A stretch of 64,000 nucleotides of DNA from the NCBI GenBank assembly GCA_019057475.1, contig DXJO01000020.1, positions 96,001 to 160,000 of the forward strand, in the 5' to 3' direction. The notes under the pieces were generated by a model. That model searched no databases and was not told the origin of the DNA. It saw only the letters and a list, made by a program, of their open reading frames with translations. Below, one piece after another: positions 943 through 22,908 of the stretch. This stretch comes from Candidatus Thorarchaeota archaeon (GTDB lineage: Archaea > Asgardarchaeota > Thorarchaeia > Thorarchaeales > Thorarchaeaceae). Positions within the stretch are counted from its first letter, which is position 1, and the number at the start of each line of letters is the position of its first letter. The translations under genes and the position numbers were made by a program.

Positions 943-3111
943 TCAAAGAGATAGAATCTGACGCTCAATTGCTTCTCTAATCGAGTCAAGGGCTTCCTTC
1001 ATGCTCACACTTCTTCCTTCAGCATCGACGTTTGGATAATGCTTCGAATACTCTTCTAGGCATTTGCCGCAGGCCATCACAAAGATGTCGAGAGAATTGA
1101 ACATTTCTCCCTGTTCCTTGGCATTCTCAATCAGTTTCCATGACGCCTTCAAGATCTCTGCCTTGATTGATTTCCATGAACGCTCTGGGGGGTTTCGTCC
1201 TCTCTTTCGACAAACAAGGACCATATCCATCGTGATGTTCTTCATCTGATGGAGGTGCGTTGAAGCTCTCATCTCGCTTCTGACAGGATACGACGCGGAA
1301 ATGTAGAAACCAGAATTCAAGACGGCTTTTAAAACAAGAGCCCAAGCATCGCTTCTCTTGTGATGAAAAGTAAATACAAAAATGCCCTCGTCCTTTAGAA
1401 CCCGACAAGCTTCAGAAAACACCCGCGTAAGTCCTTCTACGAACTCCTCCTTTCCTTTCTTTTGAGCGCGATTCTCAATCACTTCTGCTTGCCACGGAAC
1501 GGTTTCCCCCTTGAAGTAATCATAGCTTGTTTTTAGAGCAATCCTGAGCCAGACGTAGAAGAAGTTCGAGAGCTCAGAGTACATCACGTTGCCTGCATAA
1601 GGTGGGTCGGTTATCACCGCATCCACGCTCTTACGGGGGATGTCTATAAATTCCGATGACCCACACTGAAGAAGCACACTGCCCGGCTCGTGGATGACAT
1701 CAAATGCCGTAGCGAGTTTTCCGATGATTGGTGTTTCAAACTGCACCTTTCTACTACCATCTTTCTCGATAACCCTTTCAAACGGCTGTCTACAGTATGC
1801 CTTTCCTTCCATTACAAGATTGACAAATGCAGTAAACGCACCCCTCCCCTTTGACGTATCGTAGCAATTTGCTTCGACCGGAGCCATTGAAGGCGAGTAT
1901 GAATGAGTCCTGAAGATGTCTGTTATGAATCCTCTAGTACTGTTGTATTTCGCGAACATGTTGTTATACTTCAGGCAATTCGAGAATGCAAGAAGGAGAA
2001 ACTCCTTGAGGTTCCAGTCCTCGACCCTCAAAATCCAATTAAGGATCTTTCCTAGATTCAGCAGCTGTCTCTCATTGAACAAATCCTTGAATCGGACGTA
2101 TCCATGGTTCAATGCTCTCTTTGTTTCAACTCCAAGAGGAATCGGAGTATCTGGGATTGGCAGCTGGTCCTTCAGCTTATCGAATTCCTGTTTAGCTGAT
2201 GCAAGAAGCTGAAGGTCCGCTGAGTCAGCAGTCTTGTATCCTCGGCCATTCATTAGCCTTGGATTATTAGTCAACTCGCATTGTGGACAATGGAATTCAA
2301 CAGCATACATCCGTTCATGGAGCGGACCATTCCTCCCAGTTGCTGTCACTATCTTGCCGCCCCTACAGCCATTATTGGGGCATTCGTATTTCCGTCTTCT
2401 TGCAGACGAGGTTGCTTTCGGAATGAATTCTGCTCCACATTTCGTGCATTTTGTCTTGATTTCCGCGTTTTTCGTCACAAAAACATCCCAACATTGTGGG
2501 CACACAATCACATCTCCTGTTTCAACTGGAGACCGGGCCAAGAAGTAATTCCGCATCAAAGGGATAGTGTGACCGCACTCAGTACACTCCAGCTCTTTGC
2601 AGTAGAAGTAGTATATCGCCTGTGCGGCGCTTCCGCAATCTGGGCACGTGGTCTTGTAGTACCTGCGCAGTTCGGTGCCAAGATCTCTCTCTAGCAAAGT
2701 AAGAGCGCGCTCGAGTTCCTCAGGATTGATGTCCTCAATCTGTTTCTTTACCACAAACCATGCGACTGGATTGAGGTCTCCAGCAACAACGCTGCAGCCA
2801 AATCGTAGAGCCTCCACGACGGTGGTTCCACCACCCATCATAGGATCAAGAATCACCTTGCTCGGGAGCTTGACATCCTGAGAGTAGAATTCCCAGAGCG
2901 AGTGAGGATCTAGATTCCAACCTTCTATCTGTTCATCTGCGAGGGTGTAGAGTATAATTGCACGAAAGACTGACCCAAGTCGCCTTGCCCACCACTTATG
3001 CATTGTATAAACGGGTCTGTAATGTCGTCTACCAAAGCCAGTGGACTCCTTCTCAGCAATCCTGTTTATCTCGGTTACTGGAAACGTGACCTCAATGGGT
3101 TTCTTCGGCAG
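943..3111 (-). CDS. DUF1156-family adenine-specific DNA methyltransferase with Zn-ribbon insert; start extended to CTG at 3111
   Basis: HKWWARR, LDPMMGGGT (motif I), DPPY (motif IV), multiple CxxC; frame is open upstream of the ATG and encodes the family-like N-terminus PIEVTFPVTEIN; GGAGG lies 7 nt before the CTG. Confidence 0.85.
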   Translation of the reverse strand: MPKKPIEVTFPVTEINRIAEKESTGFGRRHYRPVYTMHKWWARRLGSVFRAIILYTLADEQIEGWNLDPHSLWEFYSQDVKLPSKVILDPMMGGGTTVVEALRFGCSVVAGDLNPVAWFVVKKQIEDINPEELERALTLLERDLGTELRRYYKTTCPDCGSAAQAIYYFYCKELECTECGHTIPLMRNYFLARSPVETGDVIVCPQCWDVFVTKNAEIKTKCTKCGAEFIPKATSSARRRKYECPNNGCRGGKIVTATGRNGPLHERMYAVEFHCPQCELTNNPRLMNGRGYKTADSADLQLLASAKQEFDKLKDQLPIPDTPIPLGVETKRALNHGYVRFKDLFNERQLLNLGKILNWILRVEDWNLKEFLLLAFSNCLKYNNMFAKYNSTRGFITDIFRTHSYSPSMAPVEANCYDTSKGRGAFTAFVNLVMEGKAYCRQPFERVIEKDGSRKVQFETPIIGKLATAFDVIHEPGSVLLQCGSSEFIDIPRKSVDAVITDPPYAGNVMYSELSNFFYVWLRIALKTSYDYFKGETVPWQAEVIENRAQKKGKEEFVEGLTRVFSEACRVLKDEGIFVFTFHHKRSDAWALVLKAVLNSGFYISASYPVRSEMRASTHLHQMKNITMDMVLVCRKRGRNPPERSWKSIKAEILKASWKLIENAKEQGEMFNSLDIFVMACGKCLEEYSKHYPNVDAEGRSVSMKEALDSIREAIERQILSL

Positions 3112-3418
3112 GCTAGAGCCTCCTGTACATTAGGGGTGTGTGAGTAAGAAGCAGTCAGCCCTTTCAATATTCCGAGGTTGATTTGATTATCAGCAAACCC
3201 TTGTTAGGCCTGCTGAGTAATCCTTAGGCACTTGATGGCAGACAATACCTTAGCTGAGCTTCAGGTTACACTGGAGTATGATGGAAACGTCCGGCTGAGG
3301 GAGGGTGGAACACAGAAGCTTCTTGCAGTTGGGCTCACTCATCTCAGGAAACAGGTCAGGCCGGTTCGAATCCCCCTTGCTGAAGGGGCGGACCGAAACA
3401 AGCTTGAAGAAGGGAGAA

Positions 3419-3495
3419 TGGTCCGGATGGCCGGATTTTTCGGCGCACTATTCGCCTATAGCAGCGCAGAACTGGCAACCCATGGATCTACAGCC
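3419..3495 (-). pseudogene. tRNA-Tyr(GTA) 3' fragment (about positions 30-76) with a 30-nt T-loop intron and no 37/38 intron
   Basis: 3419-3438 matches 18/20 and 3469-3493 matches 24/25 to the spliced resident tRNA-Tyr; insert 3439-3468 forms a BHL-type structure; ends in ACCA. Confidence 0.85.
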
Positions 3496-3580
3496 TTTTA
3501 GAGGTCTAGAACATTGAGATGGCACATCAAATCTACTGACTGTTGGATATTAAAGAAAGATATCATACTATAAGTGGGAG

Positions 3581-4162
3581 TTGATAGTGAAACGCCTGTC
3601 ACGGTTTCAGTGGCTTCTTGTTGTAGGTTTGATATTGTTTCTCAGCGGGAATTTTCTACCAATACGATTTCCACTATGGAGCAGTCAGTATTCATTTGAA
3701 ATCGGTCCTTGGGATTCCAGTTCGGAGAGTGTCGATATTCCATTCAGTATATTCTATGGTGAATCTGTGAGAGTGATAGTTGAATTTGACAGCTCTGCGA
3801 CTCCTGATGATTGTTGGGTACGGGCGTTGGTGTACTATCAATATCCCACAAAAGTAATCTCTGATACGGCAATCCGTCTTGAAGGACAATGTGAAGTAAG
3901 CTTCACATTTGGCTGGGAAAATGTGCGCCTCATACCTGTCTTTGTCACTGGATTCACGGTTAGTCTATTCTATACTGGTACAGACAGTGTTTCGGTAGAT
4001 GTTGTTGTCACGAGTTTGGCAAACTTGGTCACTCTCACTGGCTTTGGATTCTTGGTCATTCTAGTCCTACCCATCTTGAAACCAGCAGTAATCAGTAGAT
4101 TTGGTAAACAGAGAAAGCAGCAAGATAGAGGAGTGGATAATGGTCGGGACGGCCGGATTTGA
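3581..4162 (+). CDS. Hypothetical membrane protein (N- and C-terminal TM helices, central beta-rich domain)
   Basis: Two hydrophobic segments; stop codon lies antisense within the tRNA-Tyr 3' end. Confidence 0.6.
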   Translation: MIVKRLSRFQWLLVVGLILFLSGNFLPIRFPLWSSQYSFEIGPWDSSSESVDIPFSIFYGESVRVIVEFDSSATPDDCWVRALVYYQYPTKVISDTAIRLEGQCEVSFTFGWENVRLIPVFVTGFTVSLFYTGTDSVSVDVVVTSLANLVTLTGFGFLVILVLPILKPAVISRFGKQRKQQDRGVDNGRDGRI

Positions 4163-4248
4163 ACCGGCAACCCATGGATCTCTCCAGACAACAACCGAAG
4201 CTGTTGCCCGCTACAGTCCATTGCTCTGCCAGGTTGAGCTACATCCCG
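4141..4248 (-). tRNA. tRNA-Tyr(GTA) with 31-nt intron at 37/38 (4180-4210), encoded CCA
   Basis: Cloverleaf, C1-G72, A73, anticodon arm ATGGA-CTGTAG^A-TCCAT, intron hairpin with UUCG loop. Confidence 0.95.
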
Positions 4249-4403
4249 ATGTTCGGAGCGAGTCCTGCATGGTTCTGAATAAAAGCATTGCTGCATAAGC
4301 TAATCGCTCTTGCTCATTTTCTTTCACAAACGTTGTCTTCAGCATTCAACTCTTGATTTCAATATTCTCCGTGTCTGCAATCTTGAAAGATTTTTGTATA
4401 CTA

Positions 4404-4940
4404 CTAACTCAGGAATTCTGTCACATCATTGACAGATAATCTAGGTCTAGGTTTTGGATTTGCATCTGACCATCCCACAGTTATTGCCGCAAGTAGTTTC
4501 CAAGGTTTCTTGAAATAGTCAACGATACCTTCAGATGTATAAAGGATATCCCCAATCCAACAGGTTCCAAGTCCAAGTGCATGAGCTTTCAATAATAGAT
4601 TTTGAATTGCTGCAGATACACTGTGAATCTCAGTGGACCATCCGAGCTTGTTCGTATTCCAAACCACAATGACCACTGGAGCTTCTTTCATCATTGTGCA
4701 TGAGCCATATGAAGAACCCACATCAAAGGTTAGTTTGTCAAGTTCACTTCTGTACATGTCCGTAAATTTGTCCTTAGATTCACCAGTAAGCACAGTGAAT
4801 CTCCATTGCTGACCATTCTTGGCACTGGGCGCGAATGTTGCCGCTTCGATAATTTCTCTGACTAAATCCTCCTTTACTTCATCTTTCTTGTATGTTCTAA
4901 TACTTCGACGTCCCTTGATAGCCTCATCAATACTCATCAT
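4404..4940 (-). CDS. Nitroreductase family protein
   Basis: RRSIR, APSAKNGQQWRF, QNLLLKAHALGLGTCW motifs. Confidence 0.9.
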   Translation of the reverse strand: MMSIDEAIKGRRSIRTYKKDEVKEDLVREIIEAATFAPSAKNGQQWRFTVLTGESKDKFTDMYRSELDKLTFDVGSSYGSCTMMKEAPVVIVVWNTNKLGWSTEIHSVSAAIQNLLLKAHALGLGTCWIGDILYTSEGIVDYFKKPWKLLAAITVGWSDANPKPRPRLSVNDVTEFLS

Positions 4941-10082: not shown

Positions 10083-10190
10083 TGGCGCCCCCGCCGGGAT
10101 TCGAACCCGGATCTCAAGAGTTCCGTTTTAGCAATCAAGAGATTACTTGATTGACAGTCTTGAATGCTAACCGGGCTACACTACAGGGGC
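10083..10190 (-). tRNA. tRNA-Asp(GTC) with 31-nt intron at 37/38 (10121-10151), encoded CCA
   Basis: Cloverleaf, G73, CAAGA-CTGTCA^C-TCTTG; CTGT/ACGG central helix. Confidence 0.95.
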
Positions 10191-10527: not shown

Positions 10528-10620
10528 GGGCTCGTGGCGCAGACAGGTAGCGCAGCAGGCTTTTAAACTAAAAGTGAAGACACCTGATGGCCGCGGGTTC
10601 AAATCCCGCCGAGCCCGCCA
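10528..10620 (+). tRNA. tRNA-Lys(TTT) with 16-nt intron at 37/38 (10566-10581), encoded CCA
   Basis: Cloverleaf; BHB with CTTT/GAAG central helix and two 3-nt bulges. Confidence 0.95.
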
Positions 10621-22793: not shown

Positions 22794-22908
22794 TGGCGCT
22801 GGGGGCGAGATTCGAACTCGCGCGTGCAAGCACACCAACTGTCAGCCCGCCCGCGTCACGCGTAGGCGATTAGCAGGCTGGCTCCGTACCAGGCTCGGAA
22901 ACCCCAGC
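22794..22908 (-). tRNA. tRNA-Ser(GCT) with 30-nt intron at 37/38 (22841-22870), encoded CCA
   Basis: Cloverleaf with long variable arm, G73. Confidence 0.95.

Follow-up and report, generated by a model that had tools for sequence, protein, structure and literature searches.

A decaying tRNA-Tyr insertion scar with a T-loop intron in a Thorarchaeota genome and its probable origin by recombination with the working gene

Displaced tRNA ends at the borders of insertions are textbook knowledge, and split tRNA genes are known in Nanoarchaeum equitans and Caldivirga maquilingensis. The locus described here, behind the tRNA-Tyr gene of a Thorarchaeota genome, shares its geometry with the attachment-site duplications of the SSV1 and pNOB8 types, outlined in PMC3293823 and, for the Islander principle, in PMC4383910: an intact tRNA gene is kept, some 45 nt of its 3' part, from the anticodon loop to the 3' terminus, are repeated at the far border, a native trailer follows the distal repeat in sister genomes, and in some relatives tRNA-Tyr lies directly beside the flanking gene. 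Compared with what is described there, our locus differs in having no integrase of either type, whole or split, and a cargo of one gene of 191 aa; its insert is an old one that genus-level lineages have inherited, and its repeat, which carries an intron, was probably rebuilt by later recombination.

Heterogeneity of the tRNA-Thr(GGU) locus of Caldiarchaeum subterraneum was described by Sugahara et al. 2012 (PMC3293823), who proposed site-specific and homologous recombination for intron gain and the scattering of fragments. There, as here, a direct repeat of part of a tRNA flanks inserted DNA, gene and fragment differ in intron content, locus variants occur among near-identical genomes, and a transposable element lies beside the locus. 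However, the Caldiarchaeum fragment is a 5' part whereas ours is a 3' part, its working gene has an extra intron whereas here the scar holds an intron missing from the gene, and a recombinase gene is present there while none remains here. The Caldiarchaeum intron was proposed to arrive with the attachment site of the element; our intron is homologous in other genera and therefore predates the event, and the transfer would have run in the reverse direction, from gene to scar.

In Asgard archaea, heavy and repeated interruption of tRNA genes has been documented, the route by which the introns arrive being left open (bioRxiv 10.64898/2026.10.13.758758); the census in that preprint excluded pseudogenes and found no link to mobile elements. 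The multi-intron tRNA genes of Asgard archaea and Thermoproteales resemble those studied here in having T-arm and D-arm introns at splice-motif sites, with repeated gains and losses. In contrast to the 2026 census, our locus is a single case, in which an intron-bearing tRNA segment was probably copied by recombination at an insertion scar, together with a clean 30-nt polymorphism. In the literature, we found no description of a displaced archaeal tRNA end carrying an intron homologous to one in working genes.

The window, meaning the whole stretch of 64,000 nt that was analysed (G000:C54:96001-160000), is part of a 3.34-Mb assembly with 48% G+C that is 96% complete. This genome, G000, was compared with its congeners G001 and G006, with G010, G023 and G056 from two other genera and with further genomes and public contigs (L-numbers), all of the genomes being metagenome assemblies. 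Homologues of the local genes carry the source names Thorarchaeota, Sifarchaeia or Hodarchaeota. The sole GTA tRNA of the genome, as called by ARAGORN with introns, is a functional tRNA-Tyr(GUA) with an encoded CCA at 4141-4248 on the minus strand (Rfam RF00005, 56.2 bits; ARAGORN -i), composed of exon 1 (4211-4248), a 31-nt intron at 37/38 (4180-4210) and exon 2 (4141-4179), and followed by its own trailer at 4121-4140. ARAGORN run without introns miscalls it as a tRNA-Asn, and a search of 3000-4700 against Rfam gave no match besides tRNA. The working gene has no intron at 56/57, and one allele in metagenome run X2 skips 4180-4210. Very long tRNA "introns" called by ARAGORN elsewhere in the genome (e.g. 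on C39, 1513 nt) held no recognisable gene and were dropped; a 17-nt exact match to the 5' end of tRNA-Tyr on C29 and C45 lies inside duplicated radical-SAM genes and was set aside as chance.

On the same strand, 645 nt downstream of the gene, lies a fragment running from the anticodon loop to CCA (3419-3495), which we call the scar. It matches the mature tRNA at 42 of 45 positions from C32 to CCA, the mismatches being A52, A67 and G71. Its left part (3469-3495, 27 nt; repeat family D4, 95%) corresponds to tRNA-Tyr positions ~32-56 and is uninterrupted at 37/38. This is followed by a 30-nt insert at 56/57 (3439-3468), whose boundary cannot be slid, and by a right part of 20 nt (3419-3438) with positions 57-76 and CCA, in which A67 and G71 are substitutions due to decay. 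The 3' end of the scar reads ...ATCCGGACCA, and its trailer (3399-3418) is homologous to the trailer of the working gene; right part and trailer belong to repeat family D1 (40 nt, 80%), and both parts of the repeat were recovered by the repeat search. A spacer (3496-3586) separates the scar from the cargo gene and contains an AT-rich box, TTTAATAT, on the minus strand at 3547-3554. In all of these facts (the intact gene with its 37/38 intron, the 42/45 match, the 30-nt insert at 56/57 and the box) our analysis agrees with an earlier, sequence-only reading of the locus.

The same reading had taken the 30-nt insert for a splice motif, and this was borne out: the insert appears to be a genuine archaeal (BHB-type) intron, as a homologous copy is found at the same site in intact tRNA-Tyr genes and its helices covary. 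Homologous 56/57 inserts are present in the intact genes of G001, G010, G023, G056, L042, L048 and L061, so that relatives with such an intron, which had been predicted, do exist; pattern scans of metagenome and genome collections added one contig (L061, a gene copy) and recovered G001 itself. Identity to the G001 gene copy is 29/30 for the scar of L042 and 24/30 for that of G000, and identity with the introns of G010, G023 and G056 is 81-88% over the matched stretch. The copies in the scars of G000 and L048 share derived changes, and the tRNA-Tyr of G015 has unrelated sequence at 56/57. Excising 30 nt at this site restores the T arm in the genes of G001, G010, L042, L048 and G015. The motif consists of a 4-bp central helix (positions 51-54 with intron nt 25-28), an 8-bp intron helix (nt 2-9 with nt 17-24) and 3-nt bulges containing both splice sites; the outer exon helix is not formed, making it a motif of the relaxed kind. 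In an alignment of ten copies (A1), 95.8% of the cells in 12 pairs are paired and 7 pairs have compensatory changes on both sides, a level reached in 0 of 500 shuffles and far above that of every slid control. The sole non-pairs in the central helix are the A52.C of three scars. G000 encodes two EndA paralogues, at C42:52804-53058 and C54:85728-85985, which would be consistent with a broad-specificity two-subunit enzyme.

In G000 the 56/57 intron sits in the fragment and not in the gene.

Intron content varies extremely among relatives, and the working gene contains {37/38} in G000, L046 and L047, {37/38, 56/57} in G001, {22/23, 56/57} in L042 and L048, 22/23 together with a different 37/38 intron in L050 and L045, no intron in G006, three introns in G010 and four in G023 and G056. 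The 37/38 intron is identical in G000, G001 and L046 and homologous in G000, G001, G010, G023 and G063, and it shows a divergence between genera similar to that of the 56/57 intron. The two introns are independent, and they coexist in one gene in G001. The suggestion of the sequence-only reading that an intron had moved from the T loop to 37/38 is therefore unsupported. Over 1.1 kb of the cassette, G001 and L046 differ by one SNP and exactly the 30 nt, which means that the 56/57 intron was cleanly lost or gained within a near-clonal population. The G000 gene differs at three intron sites from other genes in the same arrangement ({37/38} against {22/23, 56/57}), so that allele replacement between lineages is as likely as loss in place. 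Furthermore, genomes with the inverted arrangement described below do not group in a tree of flank B, and the locus types are not monophyletic, which implies that alleles also move between lineages. The G000 gene could thus either have lost its intron in place or have taken over an L046-like allele.

The order tRNA, ORF193 (the cargo gene, on the opposite strand) and scar is common to the three genus-level genomes G000, G001 and G006, and more distant Thorarchaeota contigs, with an ORF193 that is ~70% identical, have the same scar in a plain form, its left boundary again falling in the anticodon loop. Where a genus lacks ORF193, tRNA-Tyr lies between a DNA methylase gene and the p328 gene and is oriented as in G001. 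The trailer of the working gene is alike in all genus-level genomes, reading TTATCCACTC...; what stands behind the scar differs between two locus types. Direct-type scars (G001, G006, L045-L047 and L050) are intronless and are followed by CTATT/CCATT... and flank B; the first 5-9 nt of their trailer match the trailer start of the uninterrupted tRNA-Tyr in G010 and G023, and therefore a direct-type scar ends in the displaced host 3' end, intronless, as in a classical tRNA-targeted insertion. Inverted-type scars (G000, L042 and L048) all have the intron, then the tRNA end and then the trailer of the working gene, with a match of 13/13 in L042, 11/13 in L048 and 14/20 in G000.

Scars of the two types are collinear as far as position 56 and no further. 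In its left part, the G000 scar is orthologous to the intronless scars of sister genomes and collinear with L002 and L003 up to 3469-3475. Its right part is a copy of the gene's own 3' end, since the trailer at 3399-3418 is homologous to 4121-4140. A distal repeat followed by the native downstream flank is seen in direct-type relatives but not in G000, with its gene-side trailer and inverted cassette, and none of nine loci combines an intron-bearing scar with an unchanged native 3' flank. A lone 30-nt intron hop cannot carry the flank along, whereas a crossover with an intron-bearing gene, in the state seen in G001, can. This points to recombination between the repeats, and to the G000 scar as a hybrid in which the old scar is continued by the intron, the tRNA end and a gene-side trailer of 13-20 nt. 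The fragment had been proposed to be the displaced 3' half of the host gene. It is indeed a 3' part, displaced or duplicated, that closes a one-gene insert without integrase at the far end, but it is not simply the host half, because from the intron onward it is followed by the trailer of the working gene, while sister scars are intronless with a native trailer.

The three intron-bearing scars differ from one another at 10-15 of 77 positions, compared with 8-13 of 85 in the adjacent spacer and 0-2 of 77 in the tRNA exons, and the scar thus drifts neutrally at a spacer-like rate. All three carry A52.C, which disrupts the T stem as well as the central splice helix, and the orthologues in G001 and G006 are intronless and have each decayed differently. 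Region 3419-3495 is a non-functional, decaying scar and not a tRNA half; the decay that had been read from the sequence, A52.C included, is real.

The insertion looks like that of a tRNA-targeted element, with the 3' part of the tRNA directly repeated at the distal border and the intact gene at the proximal border. No integrase (SSV-type split or pNOB8-type intact) or other recombinase was found in the 0.65-kb insert or in the inspected tRNA-Tyr neighbourhoods, and an integrative origin is therefore suggested by the anatomy alone. No tandem or circular intermediate of the cassette was seen. In two genomes of other genera without ORF193, tRNA-Tyr lies close to the p328 homologue (75 nt in G007, and similar in G014). 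Joints in run X2 that connect 4139 or 4142 to 4390 or 4409, and thereby the tRNA end to flank B, were rejected as evidence of an empty site, as their sides are too short (35-43 nt) and well-preserved scars could equally explain them. The only cargo is ORF193 (3587-4162, plus strand; 191 aa from GTG), whose last 7 codons and stop are antisense to the acceptor and T arm of the tRNA. The model of its protein has an N-terminal membrane helix, a beta-sandwich and a C-terminal membrane helix (AF2 pLDDT 84), with fold matches that are generic beta-sandwiches only (GOLD, carbohydrate-binding-module or jelly-roll-like; TM-scores up to about 0.5), and there was no Pfam match. Every source name given for its 55 homologues is that of an Asgard MAG, mostly Thorarchaeota, and dN/dS was 0.34-0.7 in the nine pairs computed. 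ORF193 is predicted to be a fast-evolving accessory membrane-protein gene.

Set against G001, G006 and the synteny of the outgroups, the segment 3226-4389 of G000 is inverted while its flanks are unchanged, and the G000 arrangement is the derived one. The right breakpoint lies 2 nt past the end of the old scar and the left one in the old promoter. At the left junction is the truncated right end of an IS200/IS605-type TnpB element with its 3' guide-RNA region (3233-3362, plus strand, left-truncated), followed by a 36-nt flank (3363-3398, plus strand) that is common to all inverted-type loci and includes a hairpin and a T-arm-like 14-mer (3360-3373; pair I2, with 93% complementarity to the T arm of the tRNA). 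The relic shows 72-75% identity over ~110 nt to at least 7 copies, several of them at contig ends. A full copy in L021 encodes a 558-aa protein that scores 27.7 bits for OrfB_IS605, below the cut-off of 30.5, and 43.9 bits for Cas12f1-like TNB; Rfam returned nothing on two full copies. Neither tnpB nor tnpA is left at the relic site in G000; the element is better preserved in L048 and in run X3, and L042 shares the inversion but has no IS at that place. The leader and promoter region of the working gene (4249-4389, minus strand), with a TATA-like box about 33 nt upstream, lies within the inverted cassette, and this region of 141 nt (query 4249-4375) had no counterpart in direct-type congeners; the search gave no match in five congeners, a weak negative as these are incomplete bins. 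When 4290-4389 was considered as a decayed original scar attached to flank B, local alignment stayed at shuffle level (p 0.19-0.85), and this idea was rejected. Single-step inversion schemes (between two T loops, IS-mediated or by simple re-inversion) were also rejected, none of them yielding the observed junctions. The hybrid scar and the inversion may therefore be products of one complex rearrangement, not of a simple crossover.

As the genome is a metagenome bin, and runs X2 and X3 each hold both the direct and the inverted locus type, an assembly chimera joining two strains with different tRNA-Tyr alleles is one conceivable explanation of the arrangement. It is an extremely improbable one: an independent Logan contig, built by a second assembler from the probable source run, spans 2900-4518 with 0 differences at an even depth of 53; two other studies supplied contigs that cross both junctions at ~91-94% identity, covering 3239-3604 and 4214-4452 in related strains; and the identical architecture recurs in three more public contigs (L042, L048 and L049). 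A chimera is not indicated by these contigs, and the assembly at the locus is sound. The sequence-only reading had also offered the fragment as an expressed 3' half of a split tRNA-Tyr, whose 5' half would be encoded at another site and attached in trans. Like the split tRNA genes mentioned at the outset, it is a free-standing 3' portion beginning near the anticodon loop; a hypothetical 5' strand CCGGATG would be a perfect partner for its altered acceptor strand, the AT-rich box lies about 50 nt upstream, and a contig from an RNA library of a related strain (X20) covers 3239-3597. This contig was not accepted as evidence of expression, as its strand is unknown, its identity is 90% and it could stem from DNA carry-over. 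The box is kept in relatives irrespective of the state of the scar, also where the scar is dead, and its position fits a promoter of ORF193 equally well. What characterises a split tRNA, namely a partner half, a complementary leader and tRNA-like constraint without an intact isoacceptor gene, is absent here. A fuzzy search of the 96%-complete assembly for CCGGATG with a Tyr D arm returned the resident gene and chance matches in coding genes only, with no matching 5' half; matches to the 35 nt upstream of the fragment did not exceed 13 nt anywhere else in the genome, and a sequence of at least 14 nt complementary to the leader was not present. The intact gene stands 645 nt away, the fragment diverges at the spacer rate with orthologues that decayed in differing ways, and A52.C breaks the T stem and central splice helix in 3/3 intron-bearing scars. 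The left boundary, which had been likened to a splice bulge, is where the repeat ends in a conserved manner, also in relatives without the intron. We therefore give next to no credence to a trans-spliced half.

Two further explanations concern how the intron came to be in the scar. In the one, which fits the geometry of classical tRNA-targeted integration, the host tRNA-Tyr would have had only the T-loop intron, an island would have put its own sequence in place of the 3' half so that the host half with the intron ended up at the far end, and G000 would be the primitive state directly after integration. Relatives do have 56/57 introns, and the similar divergence of the 56/57 and 37/38 introns means that the ancestral gene probably had a T-loop intron when the insert arrived. 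However, from the intron onward the G000 scar has the trailer of the working gene and not the native trailer with flank B, every direct-type scar, in which the native trailer is kept, is without the intron, the 37/38 intron is homologous in five genomes and coexists with 56/57 in G001, so that nothing was relocated, and the inverted arrangement of G000 is derived against outgroup synteny. We consider this history improbable. Autonomous transposition of the intron, by homing or reverse splicing into the T-loop site of an intronless scar, is harder still to credit. The scar does present the same target sequence, and transposition between tRNA genes of Thermoproteales has been proposed, as cited in 10.64898/2026.10.13.758758. 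Against it, the same census found that Asgard tRNA genes have hardly ever copied introns from one another, and the gene-side trailer behind the CCA of the scar came together with the intron, which means that a DNA segment of at least ~63 nt was transferred and not 30 nt.

The reading that we prefer, with a probability of roughly 75%, is that of an old 0.65-kb insertion whose intronless scar became a hybrid through recombination between the repeats, after which the gene lost its 56/57 intron and the scar drifted neutrally. The comparisons show how the locus is built, that the intron is homologous and its helices covary, that the trailer is hybrid, that the scar evolves at a neutral rate and that relatives are polymorphic. 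An insertion with one gene would have been placed behind tRNA-Tyr, leaving a distal direct repeat from the anticodon loop to CCA, at a time when the working gene had the 56/57 intron and the independent 37/38 intron. In the simplest history, the crossover of this insertion would have lain 3' of position 56, leaving both introns in the gene and the scar intronless, followed by the native tRNA trailer; such a crossover gives exactly the state of G001. Recombination between the direct repeats could then have fused what was left of position 57 in the old scar with a copied 3' end of the gene itself; this segment comprises the intron, positions 57-76 with CCA, and a gene-side trailer of 13-20 nt. 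Unequal crossover, a tandem element or excision followed by re-entry may have been the route, since a hybrid site is expected both in an excised circle and where unequal crossover has produced a tandem duplication. Later the working gene would have come to be without the 56/57 intron, by precise loss or allele replacement, and the scar would have retained it and now decays neutrally. The order of these events, the type of recombination and the derivation of the original insert from an integrative element are what we infer from the comparisons.

The gain and loss of introns in archaeal tRNA genes is an unsolved problem, and this locus provides a dated natural series for one gene, with five intron positions combined variously among close relatives. 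The first origin of introns is not shown by the locus itself. Its recombination product brings an intron, the adjoining exon and the flank into a dead repeat, and would count as direct evidence for tRNA segments with introns being moved when DNA recombines at insertion scars. Scars can also act as fossils of past intron states. The interest of the finding is moderate and would be greater if exchange between gene and scar proves general. As a tentative proposal, which we hold to be possible rather than probable, such scars may not be inert: exchange between gene and scar could recur by unequal crossover, conversion, or excision and re-entry, and a scar could store an intron and in principle return it to the gene or erase it there. 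Together with recombination between strains, this may offer a DNA route for the fast turnover of introns in Asgard tRNA genes.

Comparison with two congeneric loci (L002 and L003) and with outgroup synteny showed that the entire cassette, made up of tRNA-Tyr (4141-4248, minus strand), the membrane-protein gene ORF193 (3587-4162, plus strand) and the scar (3419-3495, minus strand), has been inverted in the window, at 3226-4389, with its flanks unchanged. The metagenomes X2 and X3 each hold both the inverted and the non-inverted arrangement, and in the flank tree the inverted type is non-monophyletic.

The 30-nt intron at 56/57 (L002:1589-1618) is cleanly polymorphic, present in one and absent from the other of two assemblies, L002 and L046, whose only further difference along 1.1 kb of the cassette is a single SNP. 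At 4141-4162 in the window, the ORF193 stop codon is formed by the antisense strand of the tRNA T loop, and where the tRNA gene carries the 56/57 intron, ORF193 is longer by 7 codons, reaching into the intron (L042 and L048, at 3055-3097).

Across the family, tRNA-Tyr introns occupy at least six positions (about 16/17, 22/23, 37/38, 56/57, 59/60 and 60/61), and one gene can contain as many as four of them. The genes of other genera noted for intron positions were those of loci L004, L007, L056, L008, L011, L015, L014 and L027, several of which were missed or wrongly labelled by ARAGORN. In the window, ARAGORN with introns called further intron-bearing tRNA genes at 10083-10190, 10528-10620 and 22794-22908, all absent from the default run, one of them a putative tRNA-Stop(tta).

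Throughout Thorarchaeota, the DNA surrounding tRNA-Tyr, from the methylase gene to the p328 gene, forms a variable island (L038-L041 and the window flanks), with contents including TFIIB-like, CorA, nitroreductase, flavoprotein and TnpB genes. An EndA gene lies a few kb away in relatives, and at C54:85728-85985 in the present genome.

At L045:3030-4480, a SIR2-like gene and a second, different tRNA-Tyr allele came in together. The older tRNA-Tyr gene there is cut within its 37/38 intron, so its scar retains the final 11 nt of the intron and is a second case of scar-preserved intron sequence. In genome G063 (L026:1980-3230), a direct duplication of ~230 nt, comprising the tRNA-Tyr T arm to CCA and the C-terminal part of ORF193, encloses about 0.85 kb of inserted DNA together with a third 3' fragment of the tRNA, and is an additional insertion layer at the same tRNA.

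A single subfamily of TnpB/IS605 right ends, terminating in GGTCAG or GGTCAAG, adjoins tRNA-Tyr pieces in several genomes (window 3233-3362; L029:2240-2300; L027:2366-2440; L045:4390-4480; L050). In G080 the adjoining piece is the antisense 5' end; in G050 and L041 it covers positions 22-37, and in L045 and L050 positions 26-37. In the window the right end is followed by a T-arm-like 14-mer. As these right ends abut tRNA-Tyr pieces, the element's RNA would have a guide segment that matches tRNA-Tyr DNA.
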